Positions 11,198-61,723 of a DNA stretch of 64,000 bases are shown here, piece by piece; position 1 is the stretch's first letter; each line of letters starts with the position of its first letter. Below the pieces are notes generated by a model. It did not search any database and had not been told where the DNA came from. It was given only the letters and a program-made list of their open reading frames with translations. Both the position numbers and the translations under genes were made by a program. Origin of the DNA: Acidobacteriota bacterium (lineage in GTDB: Bacteria; Acidobacteriota; UBA6911; RPQK01; JAJDTT01); NCBI GenBank assembly GCA_965263035.1, contig OZ253580.1:1392196-1456195 (forward strand). The letters are read 5' to 3'.

Positions 11198-13662
11198 CTG
11201 CCCTATACCCACAAATAGTGCTGGACAAACAAGAATGCCTGTCGTAGTCTCCACGACATGGCAGTTCAGAACCAGATCAAGCGCACCTTGAGCCGAGAGT
11301 TGGATCGTTTGCACGCCGTGATGAGGCGGGAGAAGTTCGCCCACCGGACGGCGCTGGCGGACCGGGTCTGCTCGGAGTTTGGATTTCACGATGCCCGAGG
11401 GCGGGCGCAACGGAGCGGCTGCCTGAAGGCGCTCCGGGAGCTGGAGGCGGGCGGACGGATTCGTCTGCCGACGCCGCGACGGCGGGTGAAACATTGCGGG
11501 CCCCGAGGACTGGGCCGTGCGGTGCCGGAGCCGGTCGGGGTGCCCGAGACGGTGGACGGCGTGCGGGAGCTGGAGTTGATCGCGGTGGAGACGGGTCCGC
11601 AACGAGCGCTCTGGAACGAGTTGATGGCGCGAGAGCATCCACGGGGCGCGGGGCCGTTGGTGGGTGCTCAACTACGCTATCTGGTGGGCTCGGCGCACGG
11701 CTGGCTGGGGGGCTTGGGGTTCGGGGCGGCGGCGTTGCGGTTGCGGGACCGGGACCGCTGGATCGGATGGGATGAGGAACAACGCCGGGCGCACCTGCAC
11801 CGGGTGGTGGGGCTGAGCCGGTTTCTGATCCGTCCGTCAGTGAGGTGTCGTAATCTGGCCTCCCGGGTGCTGGGGGAGGTGTTGCGGCGGCTGGGTCCGG
11901 AGTTCCAGGCGCGCTACGGCTACCGTCCCTGGCTGGTGGAGACCTTCGTGGAGACGGCTCGCCACGATGGGGCCAGTTTGCGCGCCACGAACTGGAGGGT
12001 TCTGGGGCAGACGCAGGGTCGAGGCCGGCAAGATCGGGCGCACCGGGGTGCGGAGACGAGCAAGGCGATCTATGGGTATGAGTTGTGCCGGGATTGGCGT
12101 CGGCGGTTGGGGGTGGGACCGGCGCCGAGGCGGGGAGTGGAACCGATGTCGGAGGGCGAGGGACTGGAGGGAGCGGGCTGGGCTCAGCAGGAGTTGGGCG
12201 GGGCGCCGCTGGGAGACCGGCGCTTGAGTCGGCGACTGGTGGAGAGTGCGCACCGTCAGGCGCAGGAGCCGGGGCGGGCGTTCACGGGAGTGGCGCGGGG
12301 CGATCCGGCGGCGGTCAAGGGATACTACCGGCTGATCGACCAGCCGGAAGCCTCGGCGGTGACGGTGTCCAACATCCTGGCCCCGCACCGGGAGCGGACC
12401 CGGCAGCGGATGCAGGGGCAGCGGACGGTGCTGTGCATCCAGGACGGGAGCGATCTGAACTTCACGCGGCACGGCCGGTGTGAGGGACTGGGGGTGATCG
12501 GGCGCAACCAGACGGGAGCGACGGCGCGGGGACTGCATCTGCACGCGACGCTGGTGGTGAGTGAGACGGGGCTGCCGCTGGGGGTGTTGCGGGCGAAGCT
12601 GGACGCGCCGAAGCCGGGACCGGTGGCCACGCGGAAAAAGAAGAAGACGTATCGCTGGATCGAGGGACTTCGGGACTGCGCCGAGGTGTCGCGGTCCCTC
12701 GACGGGGTGCGGGTGGTCAGCGTGGTGGACCGGGAGGCGGATTTTTTCGCACTGTTCGCCGAGCAACGAGCGTCTCCGGAGGTGGAGTTGCTGGTGCGTG
12801 CGAAGCAGGATCGGGTGCTGAAGCGGAAGACCCGGGCGAAGGCGGCCGGGAAAAGCGGGGATCCGGACCAGGAGCAGAAGCGGAAGCTGTTCGGGCGCCT
12901 GCGATCGGCGCCGGTGCGGGCCCGGATGCTGCTGGAGGTGAAGCGTCAGAGTGCGCGGATCAAGGCCAGCAAGCAGGCGGCCCGCCCGCGGCGGCTGGCG
13001 CGGGTGGCACGGATGGAACTGCGCTACGAGACCCTGACGATTCCGGCGCCGCGCGGGAACCCAACCGGCATCCCGTCGCTGAGACTGTCGGTGGTGCACG
13101 CGCGGGAGGTCGCGCCGCCGGCGCAGGGGAAGCGCCTGGAATGGTTCCTGCTCACCACCCTGCCGGTGACCGATGTCGAGACGGCGCAGCAACTGCTGAG
13201 ATGGTATGCCCTGCGCTGGCGGGTGGAGGATTATTTCCGGGTGCTCAAGACCGGATGCCGGGTGCAACAGCTCCAGCACCAAACCGCCGAACGTCTGAAA
13301 CGGGCCATCGCCATGCACGCCGTCATCGCCTGGCGGATCATGCTGATGACGCTGTTGGGGCGAGAGGACCCGGATCTGCCGGCGCAGTTGCTGTTTTCCG
13401 ATCTGGAAATCCGGGTCCTGGGGGCGTTTGCCGCGTCGCGACGATACCCACCGCCGGAAGACCTGGGGGCGGCCGTGCTCGTGCTGGCCCGCCTGGGAGG
13501 ATATCTGGCTCGTAAACACGACCCCCCACCCGGGCATCAACTGCTGTGGCAGGGCTACGTCACGCTTTACGGCATGTGTCTGGGCTTCGCTTTACGAGAA
13601 GAAACATGAACGAAACCAGACCCAGGCTAATGTGCCCTGTGCAATATGTGGGTAAAGGGCAG
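11198..13662 (+). mobile_element. IS4/Tn5-like insertion sequence, copy 1 (the divergent copy).
   Basis: Imperfect terminal inverted repeats CTGCCCTATACCCACAAATAGTGC ... GCAATATGTGGGTAAAGGGCAG. An 8-bp direct repeat GGCTAGCT lies at 11190-11197 and 13663-13670. It contains the 783-aa transposase ORF. Confidence 0.9.
11258..13609 (+). CDS. Fusion protein: N-terminal ~300-aa domain (DUF4338/DruA-like, from memory) + Tn5-type DDE transposase.
   Basis: The C-terminal ~470 aa match Tn5 Tnp in the DNA-binding region and the DDE triad (IQDGSD, VVDREADFF, RWRVEDYFRVLKTG). The N-terminal 300 aa have no transposase counterpart. Confidence 0.85.
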   Translation: MAVQNQIKRTLSRELDRLHAVMRREKFAHRTALADRVCSEFGFHDARGRAQRSGCLKALRELEAGGRIRLPTPRRRVKHCGPRGLGRAVPEPVGVPETVDGVRELELIAVETGPQRALWNELMAREHPRGAGPLVGAQLRYLVGSAHGWLGGLGFGAAALRLRDRDRWIGWDEEQRRAHLHRVVGLSRFLIRPSVRCRNLASRVLGEVLRRLGPEFQARYGYRPWLVETFVETARHDGASLRATNWRVLGQTQGRGRQDRAHRGAETSKAIYGYELCRDWRRRLGVGPAPRRGVEPMSEGEGLEGAGWAQQELGGAPLGDRRLSRRLVESAHRQAQEPGRAFTGVARGDPAAVKGYYRLIDQPEASAVTVSNILAPHRERTRQRMQGQRTVLCIQDGSDLNFTRHGRCEGLGVIGRNQTGATARGLHLHATLVVSETGLPLGVLRAKLDAPKPGPVATRKKKKTYRWIEGLRDCAEVSRSLDGVRVVSVVDREADFFALFAEQRASPEVELLVRAKQDRVLKRKTRAKAAGKSGDPDQEQKRKLFGRLRSAPVRARMLLEVKRQSARIKASKQAARPRRLARVARMELRYETLTIPAPRGNPTGIPSLRLSVVHAREVAPPAQGKRLEWFLLTTLPVTDVETAQQLLRWYALRWRVEDYFRVLKTGCRVQQLQHQTAERLKRAIAMHAVIAWRIMLMTLLGREDPDLPAQLLFSDLEIRVLGAFAASRRYPPPEDLGAAVLVLARLGGYLARKHDPPPGHQLLWQGYVTLYGMCLGFALREET

Positions 13663-13664
13663 GG

Positions 13665-20797: not shown

Positions 20798-20858
20798 TTA
20801 TACGCGTGGCTTGGCAGGGTCCGGTTGCACCAGGAGACGGAGCTGCCCGAATGCCGGA

Positions 20859-24130: not shown

Positions 24131-25726
24131 ATGGGGACCGTGGACCGGCTCACCACCCGGGACTGCGGACTCCCCAGCCTGCTGTTGATGGAAAACGCCG
24201 GGCTGAACCTGTATCAGGTCCTAAAATCCCACTTCGGGGAACGGCTTGCCAGCCGCTCCACCGTGATTCTCTGCGGCAAAGGGAACAACGGCGGAGACGG
24301 TCTGGTCCTGGCGCGCCAATTGGCGCGCCGCGAATCTTCCCCGACGGTGGTCCTGCTCTGCAGACCCGGGCAGCTGCGGGGAGACGCCGCCGTCCAGTTG
24401 AAGGCGTACCGGAAATCCGGTGGAGAGGTGGTGTCCGTCACCTCACGGGAGGAGTGGACGAAGGTTGCGCCCATCCTCGGCAGCTGCCGGATCTTGGTGG
24501 ACGCCCTCCTGGGAACCGGGCTCGGACGTCCCGTAACCGGACTGCTCGCAGAGGTGGTTCGGGACGTCAACGGCAGCGGCGCCTTCGTGCTGGCCGTGGA
24601 CATCCCGACGGGTACCCCCTCCGACGGCCTCCGGCCTATCGGGCCCTCGGTCCGGGCTCACGCCACCGTCACCTTCACGGCCCCCAAGATCGCCCACATT
24701 CTTCACCAGGAGCCGGAGACGTTCGGACAGATCTACGTCACTCCCATCGGGACGCCCCTCCAGGTGCTGGATACACCGGAACACTTTCTGAACCTGATGA
24801 TGCCTGCCCGGATCCGGGCGGTCCTGCCGGCCCGAAAGGCGTTCTCCCACAAGGGCACATTCGGGCATGTGGCGGTCATTGCGGGGAGCCGGGGCAAGAC
24901 CGGGGCCGGCGCCCTGGCCTCCCGAGCCGCGTTGAGATCCGGGTCCGGCCTGGTGACGGGCTTGGCCCCCGACGCCGTCCAACCACTGATGGCCTCCTTC
25001 CAGCCTGAGATCATGACGGAAGGGGTGCCGTCCACGCCCGCTGGAACCTTGGCCTCGTCCGGAATCGATCGCATTCTGGAACTATTGGAGGGCAAGGACG
25101 CCGCCGGCCTGGGGCCGGGCCTGAGCACGGAGAAGGAAACCGTCGACGTGGTTCGCCGGCTGACGCGGGAGGCCGAGGTTCCCCTGGTCCTGGATGCCGA
25201 CGCCTTGAACGCCTATGCCGGCCGGGCCCACGAGTTGGTCAACCTGAAGGGGCAACCCCTCGTCATCACTCCCCACCCGGGCGAGTTTGCCCGCCTGACG
25301 GCCCATTCCATTCCGCAAATTACGGAAAACGGGATCTCCATCGCCCGCGAGTTCGCCCGGAACCGGAATCTCTGGCTCGTGCTCAAGGGGTTCCGGACCC
25401 TGGTGGCGTCGCCGGACGGCCAAGTCTATGCCTGTCCGCTGGGAAACCCGGGAATGGCCACCGCAGGAAGCGGCGACGTCCTTACGGGCGTGATCACCTC
25501 TTTCCTGGGCCAGTATCGGGCCCAGGCCCGCGTCTCTCCGCCGCAGACCACCGACGCCGTCGTCACCGCCGTCTACCTCCATTCCCTGGCCGGCGATCTG
25601 GCGGCCCAAACGCGGGGGATGGACTCGCTGGCGGCCACAGACATCATCGATCACCTGGGATCGGCCTTCCTCCAGCTGCGCGGCCGTGGAGGGCGGCACA
25701 GCGACCCGGTGGGAAATGCGGGCTAG
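24131..25726 (+). CDS. nnr: Bifunctional NAD(P)H-hydrate repair enzyme (epimerase + ADP-dependent dehydratase).
   Basis: YjeF-N motif ILCGKGNNGGDGLVLARQL and the C-terminal carbohydrate-kinase-like domain with GSGDVLTGVI. Confidence 0.85.
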   Translation: MGTVDRLTTRDCGLPSLLLMENAGLNLYQVLKSHFGERLASRSTVILCGKGNNGGDGLVLARQLARRESSPTVVLLCRPGQLRGDAAVQLKAYRKSGGEVVSVTSREEWTKVAPILGSCRILVDALLGTGLGRPVTGLLAEVVRDVNGSGAFVLAVDIPTGTPSDGLRPIGPSVRAHATVTFTAPKIAHILHQEPETFGQIYVTPIGTPLQVLDTPEHFLNLMMPARIRAVLPARKAFSHKGTFGHVAVIAGSRGKTGAGALASRAALRSGSGLVTGLAPDAVQPLMASFQPEIMTEGVPSTPAGTLASSGIDRILELLEGKDAAGLGPGLSTEKETVDVVRRLTREAEVPLVLDADALNAYAGRAHELVNLKGQPLVITPHPGEFARLTAHSIPQITENGISIAREFARNRNLWLVLKGFRTLVASPDGQVYACPLGNPGMATAGSGDVLTGVITSFLGQYRAQARVSPPQTTDAVVTAVYLHSLAGDLAAQTRGMDSLAATDIIDHLGSAFLQLRGRGGRHSDPVGNAG

Positions 25727-26177
25727 CCAGATCCTTCGCTCCAGCAGCGAAGAGGAGACACGGCGCATCGGCCTCAGGCTGGGTGAGACGCTGCACCCTC
25801 CGCGTGTGGTCCTCCTCTCTGGAGAGCTGGGAGCCGGCAAGACGGTGTTCACCCAGGCCTTGGCAGCCGGTCTGGAGGTCGAAGATCTCTCCCTGGTCCG
25901 AAGTCCCTCCTTCACCCTGATCAACGAGTACCCGTCGGCTCGCGGTCCCATCTACCATGTCGACCTGTACCGCCTGGAGGGAGCGGACGACTTCCATTCC
26001 ATCGGTATGGAGGAGATCCTGGAGCGGGAAGCCGTCGTCATCATCGAATGGGGCGAAAAGCTCGACTTGCCCGTGGAAGACCCCGTCCGTATCCGAATCC
26101 TGGTAGACCCGGCGAGCGACGAGCGCCTGCTGGAAATCGACGTCGGAGAGGAAAGAGGAAAGAGGAAAGAGAGATAA
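25716..26177 (+). CDS. tsaE: tRNA t6A37 threonylcarbamoyladenosine biosynthesis protein TsaE.
   Basis: P-loop GELGAGKT and ~150 aa length. The nnr-tsaE adjacency is conserved in many bacteria. Confidence 0.8.
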   Translation: MRASQILRSSSEEETRRIGLRLGETLHPPRVVLLSGELGAGKTVFTQALAAGLEVEDLSLVRSPSFTLINEYPSARGPIYHVDLYRLEGADDFHSIGMEEILEREAVVIIEWGEKLDLPVEDPVRIRILVDPASDERLLEIDVGEERGKRKER

Positions 26178-27345: not shown

Positions 27346-27948
27346 ATGAGCCCGATTGATTCGCCGGCGGGACCCCGCGGGGCGAAGACGAAAGAGGGGG
27401 AACGGGGATTCAGCCTGATCGAGGCGCTTCTGGCCACCGCTGCCTCGGCGCTCCTTTTCTCTCTTTTTCTGGGAATGTTCGACCAGGTTCAGACCACCGT
27501 CACCAATCTCACACGCTTGATGGAACGGGACCGGAACCTGATCCTGGCCCCCGTCCTGCTGGGTGGGTGGATCCTGGGAGCGGGCAACCGGGAGTGGAAC
27601 CGGGCCGGGGACGGAATCCTGATCCAGTCCGGAATCCTCCAGATCGAGTCCGACCTGGACGGGAAGGACGGGTTTCCCGACGGGCGAGTCGACGGCAATT
27701 TCGAGAGCCTGTCGCTCCGCTGCCGGACGGAGCATTTGCAACTCAAGAGCGGCGGGGGGAGCTTTCAAGCCGTCCTGAAACACATCCGGCAGTGGGAAAT
27801 TCTGATGCAAGGACGGTTGCTGAGCCTTCGCCTCACCGGCGCCGTCAGCCCCAACCTGATGTACTGGAAAGGGGACGGAGAGACCGTTGAGACGATCCAA
27901 TTCACGCTTCGGAACTACCGGCCCAACCTCTTCCCTCCCCGGGATTGA
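27346..27948 (+). CDS. Minor pseudopilin (GspJ-like).
   Basis: N-terminal GFSLIEALLATAASALLF prepilin-type segment. Confidence 0.5.
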   Translation: MSPIDSPAGPRGAKTKEGERGFSLIEALLATAASALLFSLFLGMFDQVQTTVTNLTRLMERDRNLILAPVLLGGWILGAGNREWNRAGDGILIQSGILQIESDLDGKDGFPDGRVDGNFESLSLRCRTEHLQLKSGGGSFQAVLKHIRQWEILMQGRLLSLRLTGAVSPNLMYWKGDGETVETIQFTLRNYRPNLFPPRD

Positions 27949-29182
27949 TGAACTCCGGAAATCGGAATCGGAAGCAGGACTTGCCCTGCTGGCCGCCCTG
28001 CTCACGACGGCTCTGGTCGCGACTCTGGTCTGGACCCTGAGCGTGCAGAACCTGATCCAGTGGAGACTGCTCCAAGGGGTCGAGGCGCAACTCTACAGTC
28101 TGTTTCTGGCCCAGAACGGGATCGAATTCGCTCGCGGCCTTCTTCCCCTGGTCGATGTCGACGAACTCCTTTCCGGTCCCGACGGTTCCTTCTCCGGAAC
28201 CGATTTTCCCGAATGGAGAAATCCTCTCCCCTTTTCGGAGGCTCACCGTCTGGACCCGGAGAGTTGGACACCCGACCGCGACGACGGACTCCCGTCTCGT
28301 GGCCGGAACCGGCTGCTGCCGAACGGTTACCCGGACCCTGGAGGGGGGCGTTTCTACTTGAGGTTTTCCAACAACCCCGAGGAGCCGGCCCACCAGGACC
28401 GGGACGGAGTGGTCCTGGTCCGGAGCATGGGGATCGCTCCTCTCAAACTGCAGAACCCCTTCCTGGCTTCCACCCACAACAGCGTGACTCTGATCGAATC
28501 CCGCCTTCTGCAGGAGACTGCATTTCGACTCCGGAGCGCGCTCACCCTGGCGGGAGACGACGGAGACTTCCATTGGGTGGGAAGCGACTTTCTCCTGGAC
28601 GGTGGACACCGAGAACCGGCGGTCCGCCTCCTCTCCCTGGGAGGCGATGGACTCGGCACCGAGTTTCTGCGGAACCTCAATCCGGCCCAAGCCGGCCGGA
28701 TCCGGGGTGCCGGACCGGAACCTTCTCTTCGGGACTCGACTGCGGCATACCGTGAGGACCCTCGTTATCGTTCCCTTTTCCAAGCTGTCTTCTGGAGGCA
28801 CTTTCAGGATCAGCTGCCGGCCCTCTCGTCGGCCACCGGGATTGTCCATCTTCCGGAGGGAGGAACCCTGTCAGGCGCGGTGTCGGGGGTCGTCATCGCC
28901 CGGGGGAACCTGATCCTGCAGGGAGACGTCCGGTTCCGGGGAATCCTGCTTCATCTGGGTGGGGGAGGCGTCATTCTGAAAGACCGTGCCCAGATCGTAG
29001 GAGGACTCTGGCTTTCCAACCTGAGTGTGGAGGGAGAAACGATCCGCGGGGGCTCCTTGAGCCTTCATCTTTCGGACCTGGCCAGTATCCGATACGACGC
29101 CGATGCCATCCGGTCGGGACTGCGCAGCTTTCCGCCGACTCAACTGGGTTGGCGGCTCCTCTTTCCGGAGATGAAGCTGTGA
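27887..29182 (+). CDS. GspK/PilX-like large minor pseudopilin.
   Basis: N-terminal hydrophobic GLALLAALLTTALVATLVWTL segment and size (~430 aa). It ends 5 bp before a MITE. Confidence 0.45.
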   Translation: MRRSNSRFGTTGPTSSLPGIDELRKSESEAGLALLAALLTTALVATLVWTLSVQNLIQWRLLQGVEAQLYSLFLAQNGIEFARGLLPLVDVDELLSGPDGSFSGTDFPEWRNPLPFSEAHRLDPESWTPDRDDGLPSRGRNRLLPNGYPDPGGGRFYLRFSNNPEEPAHQDRDGVVLVRSMGIAPLKLQNPFLASTHNSVTLIESRLLQETAFRLRSALTLAGDDGDFHWVGSDFLLDGGHREPAVRLLSLGGDGLGTEFLRNLNPAQAGRIRGAGPEPSLRDSTAAYREDPRYRSLFQAVFWRHFQDQLPALSSATGIVHLPEGGTLSGAVSGVVIARGNLILQGDVRFRGILLHLGGGGVILKDRAQIVGGLWLSNLSVEGETIRGGSLSLHLSDLASIRYDADAIRSGLRSFPPTQLGWRLLFPEMKL

Positions 29183-29186: not shown

Positions 29187-29353
29187 CTAGGAGGCTGCGC
29201 CGCAGAAATTGATCTACTGCGAAAGCGGTAGAATCGGTCCATATTTCCTCGATTTCTCGGCGAATAGAACAACTATGCACCTCCAAATCGAGAAAATCTG
29301 GCCTCGATTCCCCACTTTCTCGCTACGATCATTTCTACCGCGCAGACTCCTAG
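29187..29353 (+). repeat. MITE-like ~165-bp repeat, copy A.
   Basis: Same sequence as 50846-51012. Its reverse complement is at 35103-35268. Terminal inverted repeats GAGGCTGCGCCGCAGAAAT ... ATTTCTACCGCGCAGACTC. A CTAG tetranucleotide bounds both ends. Confidence 0.85.
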
Positions 29354-29355
29354 CC

Positions 29356-31817
29356 CTGCTCTATACCCACAAATAGTGCTGGACAAACAAGAATGCCTGT
29401 CGTAGTCTTCACGACATGGTAGTTCAGAACCAGATCAAGCGCACCTTGAGCCGAGAGTTGGATCGTTTGCACGCCGTGATGAGGCGGGAGAAGTTCGCCC
29501 ACCGGACGGCGCTGGCGGACCGGGTCTGCTCGGAGTTTGGATTTCACGATGCCCGAGGGCGGGCGCAACGGAGCGGCTGCCTGAAGGCGCTCCGGGAGCT
29601 GGAGGCGGGCGGACGGATTCGTCTGCCGACGCCGCGACGGCGGGTGAAACATTGCGGGCCCCGAGGACTGGGCCGTGCGGTGCCGGAGCCGGTGGAAGTG
29701 CCCGAGACGGTGGACGGCGTGCGGGAGCTGGAGTTGATTCTGGTGGAGACGGGTCCGCAACGAGCGCTCTGGAACGAGTTGATGGCGCGAGAGCATCCAC
29801 GGGGCGCGGGGCCGTTGGTGGGTGCTCAACTACGCTATCTGGTGGGCTCGGCCCACGGCTGGCTGGGGGGCTTGGGGTTCGGGGCGGCGGCGTTGCGGTT
29901 GCGGGACCGGGACCGCTGGATCGGATGGGATGAGGAACAACGCCGGGCGCACCTGCACCGGGTGGTGGGGCTGAGCCGGTTTCTGATCCGTCCGTCAGTG
30001 AGGTGTCGTAATCTGGCCTCCCGGGTGCTGGGGGAGGTGTTGCGGCGGCTGGGTCCGGAGTTCCAGGCGCGCTACGGCTACCGTCCCTGGCTGGTGGAGA
30101 CCTTCGTGGAGACGGCTCGCCACGATGGGGCCAGTTTGCGCGCCACGAACTGGAGGGTTCTGGGGAAGACGCAGGGTCGAGGCCGGCAAGATCGGGCGCA
30201 CCGGGGTGCGGAGACGAGCAAGGCGATCTATGGGTATGAGTTGTGCCGGGATTGGCGTCGGCGGTTGGGGGTGGGACCGGCGCCGAGGCGGGGAGTGGAA
30301 CCGATGTCGGAGGGCGAGGGACTGGAGGGAGAGGGCTGGGCTCAGCAGGAGTTGGGCGGGGCGCCGCTGGGAGACCGGCGCTTGAGTCGGCGACTGGTGG
30401 AGAGTGCGCACCGTCAGGCGCAGGAGCCGGGGCGGGCGTTCACGGGAGTGGCGCGGGGCGATCCGGCGGCGGTCAAGGGATACTACCGGCTGATCGACCA
30501 GCCGGAAGCCTCGGCGGTGACGGTGTCCAACATCCTGGCCCCGCACCGGGAGCGGACCCGGCAGCGGATGCAGGGGCAGCGGACGGTGCTGTGCATCCAG
30601 GACGGGAGCGATCTGAACTTCACGCGGCACGGCCGGTGTGAGGGACTGGGGGTGATCGGGCGCAACCAGACGGGAGCGACGGCGCGGGGACTGCATCTGC
30701 ACGCGACGCTGGTGGTGAGTGAGACGGGGCTGCCGCTGGGGGTGTTGCGGGCGAAGCTGGACGCGCCGAAGCCGGGACCGGTGGCCACGCGGAAAAAGAA
30801 GAAGACGTATCGCTGGATCGAGGGACTTCGGGACTGCGCCGAGGTGTCGCGGTCCCTCGACGGGGTGCGGGTGGTCAGCGTGGTGGACCGGGAGGCGGAT
30901 TTTTTCGCACTGTTCGCCGAGCAACGAGCGTCTCCGGAGGTGGAGTTGCTGGTGCGTGCGAAGCAGGATCGGGTGCTGAAGAGGAAGACCCCGGCGAAGG
31001 CGGCCGGGAAAAGCGCGGATCCGGACCCGGAGCAGAAGCGGAAGCTGTTCGGGCGCCTGCGATCGGCGCCGGTGCGGGCCCGGATGCTGCTGGAGGTGAA
31101 GCGTCAGAGTGCGCGGATCAAGGCCAGCAAGCAGGCGGCCCGCCCGCGGCGGCTGGCGCGGGTGGCTCGGATGGAACTGCGCTACGAGACCCTGACGATT
31201 CCGGCGCCGCGCGGGAACCCAACCGGCATCCCGTCGCTGAGACTGTCGGTGGTGCACGCGCGGGAGGTCGCGCCGCCGGCGCAGGGGAAGCGCCTGGAAT
31301 GGTTCCTGCTCACCACCCTGCCGGTGACCGATGTCGAGACGGCGCAGCAACTGCTGAGATGGTATGCGCTGCGCTGGCGGGTGGAGGATTATTTCCGGGT
31401 GCTCAAGACCGGATGCCGGGTACAACAGCTCCAGCACCAAACCGCCGAACGTCTGAAACGGGCCATCGCCATGCACGCCGTCATCGCCTGGCGGATCATG
31501 CTGATGACGCTGTTGGGGCGAGAGGACCCGGACCTGCCGGCGCAATTGTTGTTCTCGGATCTGGAAATTCGGGTCCTGGGGGCGTTTGCCGCGTCGCGAG
31601 GATTCCCAGCGCCGGAAGACCTGGGGGCGGCCGTGCTCGTGCTGGCCCGCCTGGGAGGATATCTGGCTCGTAAACACGACTCCCCACCTGGGCATCAACT
31701 GATGTGGCAGGGCTACGTCACGCTCTACGGCATGTGTCTGGGCTTCGCTTTACGAGAAGAAACATGAATGAAACCGGACGGCTAATTTGCCCTGTGCAAT
31801 ATGTGGGTAAAGGGCAG
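29356..31817 (+). mobile_element. IS4/Tn5-like insertion sequence, copy 2.
   Basis: 8-bp TSD TCCTAGCC at 29348-29355 and 31818-31825. The left IR carries one mismatch (CTGCTC). Confidence 0.9.
29416..31767 (+). CDS. Fusion transposase (DUF4338-like N-domain + Tn5-type DDE transposase), copy 2.
   Basis: 783 aa, ~99% identical to copies 3 and 4. Confidence 0.85.
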   Translation: MVVQNQIKRTLSRELDRLHAVMRREKFAHRTALADRVCSEFGFHDARGRAQRSGCLKALRELEAGGRIRLPTPRRRVKHCGPRGLGRAVPEPVEVPETVDGVRELELILVETGPQRALWNELMAREHPRGAGPLVGAQLRYLVGSAHGWLGGLGFGAAALRLRDRDRWIGWDEEQRRAHLHRVVGLSRFLIRPSVRCRNLASRVLGEVLRRLGPEFQARYGYRPWLVETFVETARHDGASLRATNWRVLGKTQGRGRQDRAHRGAETSKAIYGYELCRDWRRRLGVGPAPRRGVEPMSEGEGLEGEGWAQQELGGAPLGDRRLSRRLVESAHRQAQEPGRAFTGVARGDPAAVKGYYRLIDQPEASAVTVSNILAPHRERTRQRMQGQRTVLCIQDGSDLNFTRHGRCEGLGVIGRNQTGATARGLHLHATLVVSETGLPLGVLRAKLDAPKPGPVATRKKKKTYRWIEGLRDCAEVSRSLDGVRVVSVVDREADFFALFAEQRASPEVELLVRAKQDRVLKRKTPAKAAGKSADPDPEQKRKLFGRLRSAPVRARMLLEVKRQSARIKASKQAARPRRLARVARMELRYETLTIPAPRGNPTGIPSLRLSVVHAREVAPPAQGKRLEWFLLTTLPVTDVETAQQLLRWYALRWRVEDYFRVLKTGCRVQQLQHQTAERLKRAIAMHAVIAWRIMLMTLLGREDPDLPAQLLFSDLEIRVLGAFAASRGFPAPEDLGAAVLVLARLGGYLARKHDSPPGHQLMWQGYVTLYGMCLGFALREET

Positions 31818-31819
31818 TC

Positions 31820-32500
31820 CTAGCCACCCGATCTCGATTTTCGGCCCAGGTGAAGACATGCGATCCCGGCCGAGAGGGTTCGGTGGTGGATCTCGCGGAA
31901 CCCCGCCCTCTCCAGCAACCGGTCCAGATCCTCGGGCGCGAGGAACTGTCGCACCGACCGGGAGAGATAGTCGTAGGCTGGTCCGTGTCCCGAGATCCAA
32001 CCGCCGAGTCGAGGCAGGATCCGCACGAAATAGAACAGGTACAGCGACCTGAACAGCGGCAAAGTGGGGAGCGTAAACTCCAGGATGGCCAACACGCCTC
32101 GGGGTCGGAGCACCCGATGCATTTCGGCCAGACCCTGGCGGTAGCTCTCCAGATTCCTCAATCCGAACGCGATGCTGACGGCGTCGAAGGACCGGTCCGG
32201 AAAGGGGAGTCTCAGCGCGTCCCCTTCGGCGAACGCAACACGACGGCCGTTTGCGGAACGGGACGCCTTCTTCTTACCCAAAACCAGCATGGGATGAGAG
32301 AAGTCACACGCCACCACCGAACCCACATTGGAGAGCTCCAGGGCCAGGTCCCCGGTTCCCGTGCACAGGTCCAATATCCGCGGTTCCGACGGCAGCCGGC
32401 GTTCCAGCTCGCGCCTCGTCACCCGCCTCCAGCGCCGGTCCACGGACAGGGAGAGAAGACGGTTGGCCCGGTCGTATCGGGGGGCAATGGCGCCGAACAT
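31820..32500 (-). CDS. ubiE: UbiE/MenG-family demethylmenaquinone/ubiquinone C-methyltransferase.
   Basis: MFGAIAPRYDRANRLLSL plus the SAM-binding motif LDLCTGTGD. The start is uncertain; the ORF extends upstream in frame. Its stop codon lies inside the TSD of IS copy 2. Confidence 0.7.
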   Translation of the reverse strand: MFGAIAPRYDRANRLLSLSVDRRWRRVTRRELERRLPSEPRILDLCTGTGDLALELSNVGSVVACDFSHPMLVLGKKKASRSANGRRVAFAEGDALRLPFPDRSFDAVSIAFGLRNLESYRQGLAEMHRVLRPRGVLAILEFTLPTLPLFRSLYLFYFVRILPRLGGWISGHGPAYDYLSRSVRQFLAPEDLDRLLERAGFREIHHRTLSAGIACLHLGRKSRSGG

Positions 32501-35102: not shown

Positions 35103-35268
35103 CTAGAGTCTGCGCGGTAGAAATGATCGTAGCGAGAAAGTGGGGAATCGAGGCCAGATTTTCTCGATTTGGAGGTGCATAGTTGTTCTATTCGCCGAGA
35201 AATCGAGGAAATATGGACCGATTCTACCGCTTTCGCAGTAGATCGATTTCTGCGGCGCAGGCTCCTAG
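35103..35268 (-). repeat. MITE-like repeat, copy B (inverted orientation).
   Basis: Reverse complement of copy A. CTAG at both ends (35103-35106 and 35265-35268). Confidence 0.85.
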
Positions 35269-35287
35269 CCTGATTGCCGAAGGGTTC

Positions 35288-35611
35288 CTATTGCCGGAAG
35301 AGTTCGTATGCCTCAGGGAGGAAAATCCGGGCGGTCATGATCTCCGTCATGGGGATGACGACCCGAAAATCTCCATACGCCAATCCGGATGACCCCTCAA
35401 GGGACCTCCATATCATAGGCGCATAGTTGGTCTTGACTACCAACTCCTGTTTGTCTTTATCGCGGTAGCCGCTAGCCATCGGGACGATCTTAATATCGCC
35501 CTCACCCTGGCTTTCGATTCCGCTCTTGAGGGGGAAGCCAATGTATACCTTTCTGCTCTTCAGCGAGATCTCAACCAGCCTTTGATTCTCGATGGATTCC
35601 GCGACGAGCAA
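35288..35611 (-). CDS. Hypothetical protein in a lower-GC islet.
   Basis: 107-aa ORF with no recognisable family. Local GC (~52%) is well below the surrounding sequence. Confidence 0.3.
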   Translation of the reverse strand: MLVAESIENQRLVEISLKSRKVYIGFPLKSGIESQGEGDIKIVPMASGYRDKDKQELVVKTNYAPMIWRSLEGSSGLAYGDFRVVIPMTEIMTARIFLPEAYELFRQ

Positions 35612-48298: not shown

Positions 48299-48381
48299 CT
48301 TTGGCGAAGGCCCTGCGCAGCCATTGCCGCAATCTCCGTCCAGAGGGTCCGCTCGCCGCACCGTAGAGGGGCTGGCTAGGA

Positions 48382-50843
48382 CTGCCCTATACCCACAAAT
48401 AGTGCTGGACAAACAAGAATGCCTGTCGTAGTCTTCACGACATGGTAGTTCAGAACCAGATCAAGCGCACCTTGAGCCGAGAGTTGGATCGTTTGCACGC
48501 CGTGATGAGGCGGGAGAAGTTCGCCCACCGGACGGCGCTGGCGGACCGGGTCTGCTCGGAGTTTGGATTTCACGATGCCCGAGGGCGGGCGCAACGGAGC
48601 GGCTGCCTGAAGGCGCTCCGGGAGCTGGAGGCGGGCGGACGGATTCGTCTGCCGACGCCGCGACGGCGGGTGAACCATTGCGGGCCCCGAGGACTGGGCC
48701 GTGCGGTGCCGGAGCCGGTCGGGGTGCCCGAGACGGTGGACGGCGTGCGGGAGCTGGAGTTGATTCTGGTGGAGACGGGTCCGCAACGAGCGCTCTGGAA
48801 CGAGTTGATGGCGCGAGAGCATCCACGGGGCGCGGGGCCGTTGGTGGGTGCTCAACTACGCTATCTGGTGGGCTCGGCCCACGGCTGGCTGGGGGGCTTG
48901 GGGTTCGGGGCGGCGGCGTTGCGGTTGCGGGACCGGGACCGCTGGATCGGATGGGATGAGGAACAACGCCGGGCGCACCTGCACCGGGTGGTGGGGCTGA
49001 GCCGGTTTCTGATCCGTCCGTCAGTGAGGTGTCGTAATCTGGCCTCCCGGGTGCTGGGGGAGGTGTTGCGGCGGCTGGGTCCGGAGTTCCAGGCGCGCTA
49101 CGGCTACCGTCCCTGGCTGGTGGAGACCTTCGTGGAGACGGCTCGCCACGATGGGGCCAGTTTGCGCGCCACGAACTGGAGGGTTCTGGGGCAGACGCAG
49201 GGTCGAGGCCGGCAAGATCGGGCGCACCGGGGTGCGGAGACGAGCAAGGCGATCTATGGGTATGAGTTGTGCCGGGATTGGCGGCGGCGGTTGGGGGTGG
49301 GACCGGCGCCGAGGCGGGGAGTGGAACCGATGTCGGAGGGCGAGGGACTGGAGGGAGCGGGCTGGGCTCAGCAGGAGTTGGGCGGGGCGCCGCTGGGAGA
49401 CCGGCGCTTGAGTCGGCGACTGGTGGAGAGTGCGCACCGACAGGCGCAGGAGCCGGGGCGGGCGTTCACGGGAGTGGCGCGGGGGGATTCTGCGGCGGTC
49501 AAGGGATACTACCGGCTGATCGACCAGCCGGAAGCCTCGGCGGTGACGGTGTCCAACATCCTGGCCCCGCACCGGGAGCGGACCCGGCAGCGGATGCAGG
49601 GGCAGCGGACGGTGCTGTGCATCCAGGACGGGAGCGATCTGAACTTCACGCGGCACGGCCGGTGTGAGGGACTGGGAGTGATCGGGCGCAACCAGACGGG
49701 AGCGACGGCGCGGGGACTGCATCTGCACGCGACGCTGGTGGTGAGTGAGACGGGGCTGCCGCTGGGGGTGTTGCGGGCGAAGCTGGACGCGCCGAAGCCG
49801 GGACCGGTGGCCACGCGGAAAAAGAAGAAGACGTATCGCTGGATCGAGGGACTTCGGGACTGCGCCGAGGTGTCGCGGTCCCTCGACGGGGTGCGGGTGG
49901 TCAGCGTGGTGGACCGGGAGGCGGATTTTTTCGCACTGTTCGCCGAGCAACGAGCGTCTCCGGAGGTGGAGTTGCTGGTGCGTGCGAAGCAGGATCGGGT
50001 GCTGAAGAGGAAGACCCCGGCGAAGGCGGCCGGGAAAAGCGCGGATCCGGACCCGGAGCAGAAGCGGAAGCTGTTCGGGCGCCTGCGATCGGCGCCGGTG
50101 CGGGCCCGGATGCTGCTGGAGGTGAAGCGTCAGAGTGCGCGGATCAAGGCCAGCAAGCAGGCGGCCCGCCCGCGGCGGCTGGCGCGGGTGGCTCGGATGG
50201 AACTGCGCTACGAGACCCTGACGATTCCGGCGCCGCGCGGGAACCCAACCGGCATCCCGTCGCTGAGACTGTCGGTGGTGCACGCGCGGGAGGTCGCGCC
50301 GCCGGCGCAGGGGAAGCGCCTGGAATGGTTCCTGCTCACCACCCTGCCGGTGACCGATGTCGAGACGGCGCAGCAACTGCTGAGATGGTATGCGCTGCGC
50401 TGGCGGGTGGAGGATTATTTCCGGGTGCTCAAGACCGGATGCCGGGTACAACAGCTCCAGCACCAAACCGCCGAACGTCTGAAACGGGCCATCGCCATGC
50501 ACGCCGTCATCGCCTGGCGGATCATGCTGATGACGCTGTTGGGGCGAGAGGACCCGGACCTGCCGGCGCAATTGTTGTTTTCCGATCTGGAAATCCGGGT
50601 CCTGGGGGCGTTTGCCGCGTCGCGAGGATTCCCAGCGCCGGAAGACCTGGGGGCGGCCGTGCTCGTGCTGGCCCGCCTGGGAGGATATCTGGCTCGTAAA
50701 CACGACTCCCCACCTGGGCATCAACTGATGTGGCAGGGCTACGTCACGCTCTACGGCATGTGTCTGGGCTTCGCTTTACGAGAAGAAACATGAATGAAAC
50801 CGGACGGCTAATTTGCCCTGTGCAATATGTGGGTAAAGGGCAG
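48382..50843 (+). mobile_element. IS4/Tn5-like insertion sequence, copy 3.
   Basis: 8-bp TSD GGCTAGGA at 48374-48381 and 50844-50851. The right TSD overlaps the start of MITE copy C. Confidence 0.9.
48442..50793 (+). CDS. Fusion transposase, copy 3.
   Basis: 783 aa. It differs from copy 4 at ~2 positions. Confidence 0.85.
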   Translation: MVVQNQIKRTLSRELDRLHAVMRREKFAHRTALADRVCSEFGFHDARGRAQRSGCLKALRELEAGGRIRLPTPRRRVNHCGPRGLGRAVPEPVGVPETVDGVRELELILVETGPQRALWNELMAREHPRGAGPLVGAQLRYLVGSAHGWLGGLGFGAAALRLRDRDRWIGWDEEQRRAHLHRVVGLSRFLIRPSVRCRNLASRVLGEVLRRLGPEFQARYGYRPWLVETFVETARHDGASLRATNWRVLGQTQGRGRQDRAHRGAETSKAIYGYELCRDWRRRLGVGPAPRRGVEPMSEGEGLEGAGWAQQELGGAPLGDRRLSRRLVESAHRQAQEPGRAFTGVARGDSAAVKGYYRLIDQPEASAVTVSNILAPHRERTRQRMQGQRTVLCIQDGSDLNFTRHGRCEGLGVIGRNQTGATARGLHLHATLVVSETGLPLGVLRAKLDAPKPGPVATRKKKKTYRWIEGLRDCAEVSRSLDGVRVVSVVDREADFFALFAEQRASPEVELLVRAKQDRVLKRKTPAKAAGKSADPDPEQKRKLFGRLRSAPVRARMLLEVKRQSARIKASKQAARPRRLARVARMELRYETLTIPAPRGNPTGIPSLRLSVVHAREVAPPAQGKRLEWFLLTTLPVTDVETAQQLLRWYALRWRVEDYFRVLKTGCRVQQLQHQTAERLKRAIAMHAVIAWRIMLMTLLGREDPDLPAQLLFSDLEIRVLGAFAASRGFPAPEDLGAAVLVLARLGGYLARKHDSPPGHQLMWQGYVTLYGMCLGFALREET

Positions 50844-50845
50844 GG

Positions 50846-59261: not shown

Positions 59262-61723
59262 CTGCCCTATACCCACAAATAGTGCTGGACAAACAAGAAT
59301 GCCTGTCGTAGTCTTCACGACATGGTAGTTCAGAACCAGATCAAGCGCACCTTGAGCCGAGAGTTGGATCGTTTGCACGCCGTGATGAGGCGGGAGAAGT
59401 TCGCCCACCGGACGGCGCTGGCGGACCGGGTCTGCTCGGAGTTTGGATTTCACGATGCCCGAGGGCGGGCGCAACGGAGCGGCTGCCTGAAGGCGCTCCG
59501 GGAGTTGGAGGCGCGCGGACGGATTCGTCTGCCGACGCCGCGACGGCGGGTGAAACATTGCGGGCCCCGAGGACTGGGCCGTGCGGTGCCGGAGCCGGTC
59601 GGGGTGCCCGAGACGGTGGACGGCGTGCGGGAGCTGGAGTTGATTCTGGTGGAGACGGGTCCGCAACGAGCGCTCTGGAACGAGTTGATGGCGCGAGAGC
59701 ATCCACGGGGCGCGGGGCCGTTGGTGGGTGCTCAACTACGCTATCTGGTGGGCTCGGCCCACGGCTGGCTGGGGGGCTTGGGGTTCGGGGCGGCGGCGTT
59801 GCGGTTGCGGGACCGGGACCGCTGGATCGGATGGGATGAGGAACAACGCCGGGCGCACCTGCACCGGGTGGTGGGGCTGAGCCGGTTTCTGATCCGTCCG
59901 TCAGTGAGGTGTCGTAATCTGGCCTCCCGGGTGCTGGGGGAGGTGTTGCGGCGGCTGGGTCCGGAGTTCCAGGCGCGCTACGGCTACCGTCCCTGGCTGG
60001 TGGAGACCTTCGTGGAGACGGCTCGCCACGATGGGGCCAGTTTGCGCGCCACGAACTGGAGGGTTCTGGGGCAGACGCAGGGTCGAGGCCGGCAAGATCG
60101 GGCGCACCGGGGTGCGGAGACGAGCAAGGCGATCTATGGGTATGAGTTGTGCCGGGATTGGCGGCGGCGGTTGGGGGTGGGACCGGCGCCGAGGCGGGGA
60201 GTGGAACCGATGTCGGAGGGCGAGGGACTGGAGGGAGCGGGCTGGGCTCAGCAGGAGTTGGGCGGGGCGCCGCTGGGAGACCGGCGCTTGAGTCGGCGAC
60301 TGGTGGAGAGTGCGCACCGACAGGCGCAGGAGCCGGGGCGGGCGTTCACGGGAGTGGCGCGGGGGGATTCTGCGGCGGTCAAGGGATACTACCGGCTGAT
60401 CGACCAGCCGGAAGCCTCGGCGGTGACGGTGTCCAACATCCTGGCCCCGCACCGGGAGCGGACCCGGCAGCGGATGCAGGGGCAGCGGACGGTGCTGTGC
60501 ATCCAGGACGGGAGCGATCTGAACTTCACGCGGCACGGCCGGTGTGAGGGACTGGGAGTGATCGGGCGCAACCAGACGGGAGCGACGGCGCGGGGACTGC
60601 ATCTGCACGCGACGCTGGTGGTGAGTGAGACGGGGCTGCCGCTGGGGGTGTTGCGGGCGAAGCTGGACGCGCCGAAGCCGGGACCGGTGGCCACGCGGAA
60701 AAAGAAGAAGACGTATCGCTGGATCGAGGGACTTCGGGACTGCGCCGAGGTGTCGCGGTCCCTCGACGGGGTGCGGGTGGTCAGCGTGGTGGACCGGGAG
60801 GCGGATTTTTTCGCACTGTTCGCCGAGCAACGAGCGTCTCCGGAGGTGGAGTTGCTGGTGCGTGCGAAGCAGGATCGGGTGCTGAAGAGGAAGACCCCGG
60901 CGAAGGCGGCCGGGAAAAGCGCGGATCCGGACCCGGAGCAGAAGCGGAAGCTGTTCGGGCGCCTGCGATCGGCGCCGGTGCGGGCCCGGATGCTGCTGGA
61001 GGTGAAGCGTCAGAGTGCGCGGATCAAGGCCAGCAAGCAGGCGGCCCGCCCGCGGCGGCTGGCGCGGGTGGCTCGGATGGAACTGCGCTACGAGACCCTG
61101 ACGATTCCGGCGCCGCGCGGGAACCCAACCGGCATCCCGTCGCTGAGACTGTCGGTGGTGCACGCGCGGGAGGTCGCGCCGCCGGCGCAGGGGAAGCGCC
61201 TGGAATGGTTCCTGCTCACCACCCTGCCGGTGACCGATGTCGAGACGGCGCAGCAACTGCTGAGATGGTATGCGCTGCGCTGGCGGGTGGAGGATTATTT
61301 CCGGGTGCTCAAGACCGGATGCCGGGTACAACAGCTCCAGCACCAAACCGCCGAACGTCTGAAACGGGCCATCGCCATGCACGCCGTCATCGCCTGGCGG
61401 ATCATGCTGATGACGCTGTTGGGGCGAGAGGACCCGGACCTGCCGGCGCAATTGTTGTTTTCCGATCTGGAAATCCGGGTCCTGGGGGCGTTTGCCGCGT
61501 CGCGAGGATTCCCAGCGCCGGAAGACCTGGGGGCGGCCGTGCTCGTGCTGGCCCGCCTGGGAGGATATCTGGCTCGTAAACACGACTCCCCACCTGGGCA
61601 TCAACTGATGTGGCAGGGCTACGTCACGCTCTACGGCATGTGTCTGGGCTTCGCTTTACGAGAAGAAACATGAATGAAACCGGACGGCTAATTTGCCCTG
61701 TGCAATATGTGGGTAAAGGGCAG
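59262..61723 (+). mobile_element. IS4/Tn5-like insertion sequence, copy 4, inserted in hsdS.
   Basis: 8-bp TSD CCCTAGCC at 59254-59261 and 61724-61731. Confidence 0.9.
59322..61673 (+). CDS. Fusion transposase, copy 4.
   Basis: 783 aa. All DDE residues are intact. Confidence 0.85.
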   Translation: MVVQNQIKRTLSRELDRLHAVMRREKFAHRTALADRVCSEFGFHDARGRAQRSGCLKALRELEARGRIRLPTPRRRVKHCGPRGLGRAVPEPVGVPETVDGVRELELILVETGPQRALWNELMAREHPRGAGPLVGAQLRYLVGSAHGWLGGLGFGAAALRLRDRDRWIGWDEEQRRAHLHRVVGLSRFLIRPSVRCRNLASRVLGEVLRRLGPEFQARYGYRPWLVETFVETARHDGASLRATNWRVLGQTQGRGRQDRAHRGAETSKAIYGYELCRDWRRRLGVGPAPRRGVEPMSEGEGLEGAGWAQQELGGAPLGDRRLSRRLVESAHRQAQEPGRAFTGVARGDSAAVKGYYRLIDQPEASAVTVSNILAPHRERTRQRMQGQRTVLCIQDGSDLNFTRHGRCEGLGVIGRNQTGATARGLHLHATLVVSETGLPLGVLRAKLDAPKPGPVATRKKKKTYRWIEGLRDCAEVSRSLDGVRVVSVVDREADFFALFAEQRASPEVELLVRAKQDRVLKRKTPAKAAGKSADPDPEQKRKLFGRLRSAPVRARMLLEVKRQSARIKASKQAARPRRLARVARMELRYETLTIPAPRGNPTGIPSLRLSVVHAREVAPPAQGKRLEWFLLTTLPVTDVETAQQLLRWYALRWRVEDYFRVLKTGCRVQQLQHQTAERLKRAIAMHAVIAWRIMLMTLLGREDPDLPAQLLFSDLEIRVLGAFAASRGFPAPEDLGAAVLVLARLGGYLARKHDSPPGHQLMWQGYVTLYGMCLGFALREET

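Follow-up and report, generated by a model that had tools for sequence, protein, structure and literature searches.

Four copies of a single insertion sequence, each about 2.46 kb long and all on the + strand, are found in the window, that is, in the whole 64,000-nucleotide stretch of DNA that was analysed. Each copy holds one uninterrupted 783-aa reading frame (11258-13609, 29416-31767, 48442-50793 and 59322-61673), as a preliminary description of this DNA had stated. The features of the locus, with copy 2 dissected in full, are the following.

11198..13662, + strand: IS copy 1, 2465 bp; 8-bp target-site duplication (TSD) GGCTAGCT at 11190-11197 and 13663-13670
29348..29355, no strand: left 8-bp TSD of IS copy 2, TCCTAGCC, with the same 8-mer at 31818-31825
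29356..31817, + strand: IS copy 2, complete element of the IS50 subgroup, IS4 family, 2462 bp (from the alignment of the four copies, ends, flanks and terminal 19-mer matches)
29356..29374, + strand: left inverted repeat of IS copy 2, CTGCTCTATACCCACAAAT, fitting the IS50-subgroup end consensus CW------Y---CA-A--W-
29416..31767 (stop included), + strand: single 783-aa ORF, DUF4338 module fused to a Tn5-like transposase
29416..29607, + strand: putative HTH-like helical N-terminal subdomain, aa 1-64; four helices and a beta-hairpin in the AF2 model, 59% mean family identity
29716..30270, + strand: GNAT-fold core, aa 101-285, DUF4338/DruA Pfam family, Mom-like
30334..30510, + strand: Tnp_DNA_bind, Tn5-type N-terminal end-binding domain, aa 307-365 (Pfam, Tn5 alignment)
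30511..31485, + strand: DDE catalytic domain, aa 366-690, with D396, D491 and E657 (Tn5 transposase alignment, motif positions)
31486..31764, + strand: Tn5-type C-terminal dimerisation domain, aa 691-783 (Pfam Dimer_Tnp_Tn5, 689-767)
31799..31817, - strand: right inverted repeat of IS copy 2, reverse complement CTGCCCTTTACCCACATAT, matching the left repeat at 17/19 positions
31818..31825, no strand: right 8-bp TSD of IS copy 2, TCCTAGCC
48382..50843, + strand: IS copy 3, 2462 bp; TSD GGCTAGGA at 48374-48381 and 50844-50851
59262..61723, + strand: IS copy 4, 2462 bp; TSD CCCTAGCC at 59254-59261 and 61724-61731

The ends of the element are 19 bp long, imperfect and Tn5-like, and begin 5'-CTG. 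The terminal inverted repeat CTGCCCTATACCCACAAAT agrees with the IS50-subgroup consensus at each specified position, and the terminal 19-mer has exactly 8 matches within the window, where 0.01 would be expected by chance. The left repeat starts CTGCCC... in copies 1, 3 and 4, unlike that of copy 2, which is identical at 12/19 positions to the Tn5 OE sequence. The four copies show 97% mean column identity in an alignment that includes 50 bp of unrelated flank. Copy 1 is the most divergent: its CDS differs at about 30 nt, and a 3-bp indel lies close to its right end. The TSDs are 8 bp long, each distinct, and all centred on CTAG (GGCTAGCT, TCCTAGCC, GGCTAGGA and CCCTAGCC), so that the CTAG-centred targets proposed earlier hold at all four copies. 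The host is poor in this tetranucleotide (observed/expected 0.31). The flanking genes (ABC transporter, sugar transferase, UbiE, GreA, type III PKS, AbiEii and HsdS) are mutually unrelated. Copy 4 sits within a defence island, with the AbiEii gene on one side and the hsdS gene on the other. The whole element had no match among plasmid sequences by megablast. The differing flanks and the target duplications point to mobility. The insertion sequence belongs to the IS50 subgroup, IS4 family, and it looks active: it occupies four distinct sites, copies 3 and 4 are only 3 nt apart in the CDS, and elements of this kind are multi-copy in many genomes.

The four 783-aa proteins differ from one another at 5-13 residues. 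All of the motif strings quoted in the preliminary description are present, the sole variant being WRVLGKTQGRGRQDR in copy 2, where copies 1, 3 and 4 carry Q251. Four Pfam domains are recognised in the protein: DruA PF14236 (aa 102-261, 2e-31), Tnp_DNA_bind (308-363), DDE_Tnp_1 (504-690) and Dimer_Tnp_Tn5 (689-767), the last three each over its cut-off. The C-terminal half is thus Tn5-like, as had been claimed; it also matches NCBIfam transpos_IS4_3 (1.6e-89; 300.7 bits, cut-off 160), and over residues 307-778 it can be aligned to residues 11-464 of the Tn5 transposase (E = 8e-28 with 1mus_A, 9e-57 with the family profile). D396, D491 and E657 align with Tn5 D97, D188 and E326, and the YREK motif is complete (Y650, R653, E657, K664) and aligns with Tn5 YREK. 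On these alignments, the Tn5-type transposase in residues 307-778 is complete and its DDE/YREK site intact. An Inh-like protein made from an internal start was considered and rejected: M297 aligns with Tn5 M1 but is Leu in most homologues.

The N-terminal half had been attributed to the DUF4338/DruA family. Its PF14236 score is 109.7 bits, the cut-off being 27. An AF2 model built on a 71-sequence alignment (mean pLDDT 87.6) gives this obligatory module of about 300 aa an HTH-like helical subdomain, joined through a variable linker to a GNAT-fold core. The HTH assignment of aa 1-64 is suggested by the topology of the model, along with a faint PaaX-like match in P0230, an IS66 transposase fused to the same module. 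Within the core, W119, H127, Q138, R140, Y141, R165, R176, R188, S202, E228 and R255 are invariant or nearly so; for example, R188 and H127 are each kept in 328/329 family members and S202 in 319/329. Among 105 homologues less than 70% identical, mean identity is 68% in the GNAT core vs 54% in the catalytic domain. The N-terminal module is real and under selection, given its Pfam DruA score, the conservation of its core and the intact fused frames of homologues.

The nearest characterised relative of the GNAT core is phage Mu Mom, a protein that the preliminary description did not mention and that is a more informative relative than DruA. The GNAT fold of the module is closest to that of Mom, and its structure matches in BFVD include Mom and Mom-REase-type proteins. 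One fused relative, P0217, passes the Pfam Mom gathering score (30.1 vs 27.1 bits, E = 4.6e-7), and a Mom match at E <= 1e-3 occurs in 7/67 relatives; the window protein itself gave no Pfam Mom match even at E <= 5. The Mom family profile aligns with the DUF4338 profile at P = 2.7e-4 (hhalign probability 42%, identity 18%), a better result than with Mom sequences singly: the DUF4338 profile against Mu Mom alone is weak (hmmsearch P ~0.002), and hhalign against a single Mom sequence is marginal (E = 0.037). In the profile-profile alignment, which compares sequences and not superposed coordinates, R188 falls on Mom R101 and S202 on Mom S114, in a common RN-x-x-S motif. These two Mom residues, numbered R111 and S124 in PMC13219725, are both essential (PMC13219725). 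At the position of Mom D139 the family has E, D or Q and so no invariant residue, and at that of Mom Y149 the window element has L. According to the authors of the Mom study, the substrate and donor of Mom are not readable from its sequence (PMC13219725).

The fusion defines a large clade spread across many phyla and is not peculiar to the source genome. Full-length homologues with all four domains number more than 100 and reach down to 54% identity. Of the 80 best loci in GTDB genomes, 57 hold an intact ORF of 700 aa or more, and only one is broken. The fused elements are usually multi-copy; long-read assemblies that carry them include the Acidobacteriota MAG CBDCJH01 and the Vicinamibacterales MAG CBDHGC01. 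Literature searches turned up no paper that deals with N-terminal extensions in IS4 or Tn5 transposases, with CTAG as a target of the IS4 family, or with a link of DUF4338 or DruA to a transposase, and no study of the joined transposase and DUF4338 form. The claim of an uncharacterised architecture stands to that extent, but the architecture is shared by all of these homologues, several of which NCBI already labels 'IS4 family transposase'. Members of the fused clade insert at GGCTAGCC with 8-bp duplications, CTAG being central in 35 of 42 clean cases. The unfused IS50-like relatives with clean duplications (n=5) have 9-bp duplications and lack CTAG.

Transposases of the ISAs1 and IS66 types are also accompanied by the DUF4338 module, which is either fused to them or encoded by a separate, overlapping gene. 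ISAs1-type transposases are found both fused to a DUF4338 N-terminus and in a split ISAs1-like arrangement. IS66 elements, seen in several different flanks, encode the module as a gene of its own (about 290 aa), placed after the transposase gene or overlapping it, and the abundant stand-alone forms of about 290 aa that were sampled lie directly downstream of IS66-family transposases. The earlier statement that DUF4338 is as a rule a separate ORF beside IS4-type transposases is only partly correct. One split Tn5-type case agrees with it, on Thiodictyon pTs485, where the two genes share an ATGA stop/start overlap and an IS91 insertion lies further downstream, in the transposase gene; the sampled stand-alone forms follow IS66-family transposases, and ISAs1-type partners also occur. 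By tblastn of the N-terminal module, homologues were found on two Thiodictyon plasmids only among plasmids and on no phage. The IS66- and ISAs1-linked modules resemble the one described here in having an HTH-like and a GNAT part (40-47% identical) inside DDE transposons, and their elements differ from the Tn5-type fusion in the family of the partner transposase. We know of no published description of an IS66 element with DUF4338 as second gene or of an ISAs1 element with a DUF4338 N-terminus. No CTAG site was seen at the two IS66-linked elements examined, and therefore the module alone does not imply CTAG targeting. The ISAs1 fusion L002 and the IS66 unit L011 had no convincing inverted repeats or duplications; L005 has GTAAAC-type inverted repeats (16/20), and the duplication looked for there was absent. 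Since the module is shared by Tn5-, ISAs1- and IS66-type transposases, it would provide a general service to DDE transposons and not form part of Tn5 chemistry.

What the module does can be proposed tentatively. It is quite possible, if short of probable, that this IS50-subgroup element carries a catalytically competent Mom-like acyl or aminoacyl transferase that would act on DNA at the ends or target. The element would move by Tn5-style cut-and-paste; the end-binding domain of the transposase itself would keep the module close to DNA, and the module, as a competent acyl or aminoacyl transferase, would put a covalent mark at or near the element ends or the CTAG target. Such a mark could regulate re-cleavage or re-insertion, or it could protect the element against nucleases of the host. 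An analogy is offered by IS10 and IS50, which are controlled through Dam methylation sites in their ends. A role linked to DNA would fit the 8-bp GGCTAGCC targets of the fused clade, set against the 9-bp duplications lacking CTAG in the five unfused relatives.

Several other roles were weighed. The module could be a non-catalytic DNA-recognition device, its GNAT scaffold and HTH-like subdomain steering the transposase to GGCTAGCC. It immediately precedes the end-binding domain, the palindromic 8-bp target is strict in the fused clade, and the sampled unfused relatives duplicate 9 bp without CTAG. Because CTAG is rare in the host, such targeting would also keep insertions harmless. This role is nevertheless unlikely. 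Polar residues with little or no variation are numerous and include the counterparts of the essential Arg and Ser of Mom, a pattern that catalysis or cofactor binding fits better than a scaffold does; as a separate protein the module also serves IS66 and ISAs1 transposases, with two IS66-linked copies off CTAG; and symmetric target preferences occur in plain IS4-family transposases, for example in IS10, which obtains its preference for GCTNAGC from the transposase core alone.

A protein acyltransferase that tunes transposition by acting on the transposase or on a host protein (a nucleoid, repair or defence factor) is a similarly doubtful candidate. The best structural and profile matches are Mom and Mom-like phage proteins and not protein acetyltransferases, and the Mom-type RN-x-x-S motif stands in place of the canonical Q/RxxGxG/A CoA loop.

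Still less likely is a module with no role in transposition, carried as defence or anti-defence cargo like Druantia DruA and directed against phages or restriction. Membership in PF14236, which is named for Druantia DruA, and the defence island around copy 4 would suit such cargo, as would the occurrence of DUF4338 as a variable N-terminal domain in DndF defence proteins (PMC10853773). The PADLOC DruA match is poor, however, druB-E adjoin no copy, the four flanks are unrelated, and no phage homologue was found by tblastn; in addition, an in-frame N-terminal fusion to a DNA-binding domain, kept intact across phyla, is abnormal for cargo. The last alternative, that the long ORF is a spurious in-frame extension or a decayed gene fusion, draws on the long spurious ORFs of GC-rich DNA (a 567-aa antisense ORF inside each copy is an example) and has a negligible chance, being refuted by an N-terminal half that exceeds a curated Pfam cut-off by 80 bits, has a confident predicted fold, is uninterrupted in every copy and, over a set of more than 100 homologues, is better conserved than the catalytic domain.

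The Mom-like transferase reading can be extended, improbably as yet, to DUF4338/'DruA' modules at large. These would be transposon-borne Mom-like DNA (amino)acyl transferases that mark bases at the ends or the CTAG target, giving DDE transposons of at least three families a self-encoded epigenetic switch, and Druantia DruA would be a domesticated relative. If so, the switch would serve target or end immunity, or protect the element and donor site from host nucleases, and the kinship would point to the activity of DruA. The module's recurrence with Tn5-, ISAs1- and IS66-type transposases suggests that it may perform an accessory role that is common to DDE transposons and has so far gone unrecognised. 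Reconstituting a Tn5-like system of one protein is far easier than reconstituting a defence operon of five genes, which would make the module a convenient entry to the DUF4338/DruA family. Builders of site-preferring Tn5 derivatives may also take an interest in the strict 8-bp GGCTAGCC target, used in CTAG-depleted hosts.

With respect to IS50/Tn5, the element shares the DDE and YREK residues, the N-terminal end-binding domain, the C-terminal dimerisation domain and 19-bp ends starting with CTG. The IS50 subgroup is described by the end consensus given above, 8-9 bp target repeats and a typical length of 1350-1550 bp (PMC2266710). The 8-bp target repeats here are inside that range, but have a strong GGCTAGCC preference. 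The transposase of the subgroup is about 450-480 aa long, vs an element of 2462-2465 bp and a protein of 783 aa here; the extra 300-aa N-terminal module accounts for the excess, and subgroup size is a convention and not a mechanistic criterion. The transposase is about 33-35% identical to its nearest unfused plasmid-borne relatives and, in contrast to Tn5, has no conserved internal start for an Inh-like protein.

DruA of Druantia type I belongs to the same Pfam family (PF14236, formerly DUF4338), well over the gathering score, and the label 'DruA-like' given in the preliminary description is apt at that level. It does not extend to Druantia itself. The PADLOC DruA1 model matches the window protein weakly (E = 0.004, 14.3 bits, 48 residues only), and the domain spans only profile positions 47-226 of 297. 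Neither druB, druC, druD nor the DruE helicase was found beside any of the four copies, the element being a single ORF. Druantia is a defence operon, whereas the context here is a 2.46-kb insertion sequence. Because of the missing druBCDE neighbours and the weak PADLOC match, the element is not a Druantia component. No description of DUF4338/DruA function in Druantia type I was found; the DUF4338 family has been termed a GNAT domain by the Aravind group (PMC10853773).

Mom (PF25680; PDB 8BV8) is a Gly-tRNA-dependent dsDNA adenine-N6 aminoacyl transferase. It has an essential HTH-like insertion between its last strands, where the N-terminal module has a gap in the profile alignment and no counterpart in the AF2 model; the module has instead a separate N-terminal helical subdomain. 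Mom is a late phage gene, whereas the DUF4338 module is joined to a transposase or encoded next to one. Bacterial transposases with a second enzymatic domain are rare, and in this one a transposase is joined to the closest known relative of the DNA-hypermodifying Mom, in a fusion that is retained across many phyla and in multiple copies.

The element under study is an IS50-subgroup insertion sequence (IS) of the IS4 family, in which the transposase is fused to a conserved GNAT module resembling Mom, the DNA-modifying enzyme of phage Mu. Four copies occur in the window, each bounded by an 8-bp direct repeat:

11198-13662, + strand: IS copy 1, 2465 bp, direct repeat GGCTAGCT
29356-31817, + strand: IS copy 2, 2462 bp, direct repeat TCCTAGCC
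48382-50843, + strand: IS copy 3, 2462 bp, direct repeat GGCTAGGA
59262-61723, + strand: IS copy 4, 2462 bp, direct repeat CCCTAGCC

The copies align over their full length, and their 50-bp flanks show no alignment. Alignment and ORF calls agree with the preliminary description in finding a single uninterrupted 783-aa ORF in all four; the motif strings quoted there are likewise all present in the window. The four proteins differ from each other at 5-13 residues. The coding sequences of copies 3 and 4 are only 3 nt apart, indicating very recent transposition, and copy 1 is the outlier with ~30 nt differences. The ends, CTGCCCTATACCCACAAAT and CTGCCCTTTACCCACATAT, match at 17 of 19 positions. 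Since the terminal 19-mer is seen exactly eight times in the window (0.01 expected by chance), the four elements are complete and none of the ends stands alone. The IS appears to have been active recently in this genome. All four copies have the same orientation despite the palindromic target, and all lie within 64 kb. Opposite the transposase gene lies a 567-aa ORF (29995-31698, - strand, with an equivalent position in every copy), which probably reflects the 63% GC content and does not represent a gene.

The C-terminal two-thirds of the protein is a complete Tn5-type transposase, as had been proposed. Pfam detects Tnp_DNA_bind (308-363), DDE_Tnp_1 (504-690) and Dimer_Tnp_Tn5 (689-767), and the score for NCBIfam transpos_IS4_3 is 300.7 bits (cut-off 160). 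Residues 307-778 align to residues 11-464 of the crystallised Tn5 transposase (E = 8e-28; 9e-57 with a family profile), with D396, D491 and E657 as the DDE triad and Y650, R653, E657 and K664 as the YREK signature. M297 is the counterpart of Tn5 M1 but varies among homologues, so there is no sign of a short transposase translated on its own.

The element targets GGCTAGCC-type sites, with formation of 8-bp duplications. From 67 intact fused elements collected with a looser filter, 42 had clear inverted repeats and duplications matching at 7/8 positions or better. CTAG occupies duplication positions 3-6 in 35 of these 42, and the consensus is the palindrome GGCTAGCC. A minority sits at 8-bp targets lacking CTAG (GCCAAGCC, GACAAGCC, GGTGCGCC and GGCGCGGG at loci L013, from Acidobacteriota MAG CBDCJH01, L091, L074 and L084), so the preference is strong, not absolute. 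Among eight unfused relatives, CTAG is missing from the perfect 9-bp duplications of five and from the 8-bp duplication of one; the remaining two are unclear. CTAG is scarce in the 54,149 bp of non-IS DNA of the window: a second-order Markov model predicts 64.5 sites and base composition 185, and 20 are seen. The observed/expected ratio under the Markov model is 0.31, and no other 4-bp palindrome comes near so low a value. Eight of the 20 are duplicated targets; thus there were 16 sites before insertion, of which the IS now occupies four. No CTAG lies within the IS. A perfect consensus target, GGCTAGCC, is free at 25721-25728, as are near-consensus sites at 35470-35477 (CGCTAGCC) and 35263-35270, the latter identical to the target of copy 2 (TCCTAGCC).

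Residues ~1-300, the N-module, belong to the DUF4338/DruA family suspected earlier: Pfam DruA (PF14236, formerly DUF4338) covers residues 102-261 with E = 2e-31 (109.7 bits, cut-off 27). The defence-specific PADLOC DruA model reaches E = 0.004 over 48 residues only. An AlphaFold model built on a 71-sequence alignment (mean pLDDT 87.6) gives the first three divisions below; mean identities are for 105 full-length homologues, each less than 70% identical to the query.

aa 1-64: N-terminal helical subdomain, 59%
aa 65-100: linker, disordered and poorly conserved, 35%
aa 101-285: alpha/beta (GNAT) core, 68%
aa 286-306: linker, 41%
transposase end-binding domain: 70%
transposase catalytic domain: 54%

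Judged by this conservation, the N-module is under selection. Kinship with Mom is seen at sequence level. The Pfam Mom family matches 7 of 67 relatives, and one of the fused relatives (P0217) exceeds its gathering score (30.1 versus 27.1 bits, E = 4.6e-7); the window's own 783-aa protein gives no match to it. Profile-profile alignment of 329 DUF4338 modules with ~100 Mom homologues pairs residues 185-285 with Mom 98-220 (P = 2.7e-4). R188 and S202 fall on Mom R101 and S114 in a common RN-x-x-S motif. These Mom residues, R111 and S124 in published numbering, are both essential to an enzyme that moves glycine from Gly-tRNA(Gly) onto N6 of adenine in double-stranded DNA (PMC13219725). Within the 329 modules R188 is conserved in 328, S202 in 319 and H127 in 328, and W119, Q138, R140, Y141, R165, R176, E228 and R255 are each at least 95% conserved.

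The N-module is also found with other transposases. A search of 1.84 billion cluster representatives gave 6249 relatives at E <= 1e-3. Among those with a length of 400 aa or more, 58 of the closest 67 run on into Tnp_DNA_bind. On Thiodictyon plasmid pTs485 (NZ_CP020372) the Tn5-type arrangement is split: the stop of a 293-aa DUF4338 ORF overlaps the transposase ATG (ATGA; L001:4816-4983), and the transposase gene is then broken by an IS91/integrase insertion. Plasmid pTs417 (NZ_CP020371) of Thiodictyon encodes an ISAs1-type fusion, WP_216644545 (L002:3956-5290), in which the GNAT core (DruA 18-171) precedes DDE_Tnp_1_assoc and DDE_Tnp_1 (NCBIfam transpos_ISAs1, 9e-36) without the helical subdomain. 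In a split ISAs1-like case (L107:1-1499), a 288-aa DUF4338 ORF overlaps an ORF matching DDE_Tnp_1_assoc (E = 6e-5); its left end CTGCCCTTCATACACAAAT and protein start MHVQNQIKR are close to the IRL and start of the present element. The element is possibly a chimera; the contig stops short of its right end.

Stand-alone DUF4338 forms (~286-298 aa, 40-47% identical to the N-module) are abundant. Their genes lie 0-30 bp 3' of, or overlap, a gene for a 505-564-aa IS66-family DDE transposase (L005-L011 and L101-L105, e.g., L102:729-3199). This holds for all ten fetched loci with a classifiable upstream gene, the transposase gene being intact in nine and split in two in one. The neighbours of L102, L103 and L105 differ, indicating a mobile two-gene unit, and 21-nt GTAAAC-type inverted repeats bracket the pair in L005. 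Single-ORF IS66-DUF4338 fusions, e.g., P0230, also exist. No TnpB accessory-gene family appears among Pfam annotations of the genes called at these loci. The pair looks like an undescribed two-gene IS66-type element.

Fused proteins are widespread. More than 100 full-length examples (767-798 aa, each with the four Pfam domains, identity as low as 54%) were recovered from 5.8 billion proteins, and relatives are encoded by at least 587 stretches (one genome per GTDB species). The best 80 of these represent Acidobacteriota (Vicinamibacterales, Bryobacterales, Holophagaceae), alpha-, beta-, gamma- and deltaproteobacteria, Anaerolineae, Verrucomicrobia, Planctomycetota, Gemmatimonadaceae, Binatia and others, often with several copies per genome. 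A check based on a motif classed 57 of the 80 as intact (ORF of 700 aa or more), six as cut by contig ends and one as broken; the motif missed the other 16. The nearest genome is Acidobacteriota MAG CBDCJH01 (96-99% identity). On plasmids, the closest unfused IS50-type transposases share only 33-35% identity, so the fused elements form their own clade. No homologue was detectable in phage records.

A Druantia component was considered and rejected: the element is a single ORF and the flanks of the four copies are unrelated, with genes for an ABC transporter, sugar transferase, UbiE, GreA, type III PKS, AbiEii and HsdS. Copy 4, between an AbiEii toxin gene (58177-59124; Pfam AbiEii, 3e-44) and an HsdS-like type I restriction-modification specificity gene (61735-62967), looks to be inside a defence island, and its insertion may have cut hsdS off from the genes upstream of it. 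Pfam gives no match at E <= 1e-4 for the ORFs at 27887-29179 (431 aa, directly upstream of copy 2) and 20721-23153 (811 aa).

IS10 and IS50 are under Dam-site control. Tentatively, and at somewhat less than an even chance, the N-module may be an active acyl or aminoacyl transferase that modifies DNA beside the transposase, at the ends, duplications or target. Its mark would be a self-encoded counterpart of Dam-site control, or perhaps protection from host nucleases. A non-catalytic targeting module, for which the contrast between 8-bp CTAG (fused) and 9-bp (unfused) duplications speaks, is unlikely given the invariant catalytic-type residues and the IS66 cases without CTAG. That the module acylates protein is, in our view, just as doubtful; defence or anti-defence cargo is more improbable still, and an artefactual fused ORF can be practically dismissed.

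Public databases already list fused proteins under generic names, several (Achromobacter, Anaerolineae, Salinisphaera, Thioalkalivibrio) being labelled 'IS4 family transposase' by NCBI. A 2008 survey of the IS4 family has no element this large (PMC2266710). No literature link of DUF4338 or DruA to a transposase was found, DUF4338 itself being seldom mentioned. What is new is the recurrent association of DUF4338 with transposases, together with the Mom kinship.

The likeness to Mom has limits. In the profile alignment Mom's essential HTH-like insertion is absent from DUF4338 modules. Where Mom has D139 they have E, D or Q, and where Mom has Y149 the present element has L. In the IS50 subgroup the end consensus is CW------Y---CA-A--W- and direct repeats are 8-9 bp (PMC2266710); the ends of the present element fit that consensus and its 8-bp repeat falls in that range. 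At 2.46 kb it is ~1 kb above the subgroup's 1.35-1.55 kb, an excess due to the N-terminal module.
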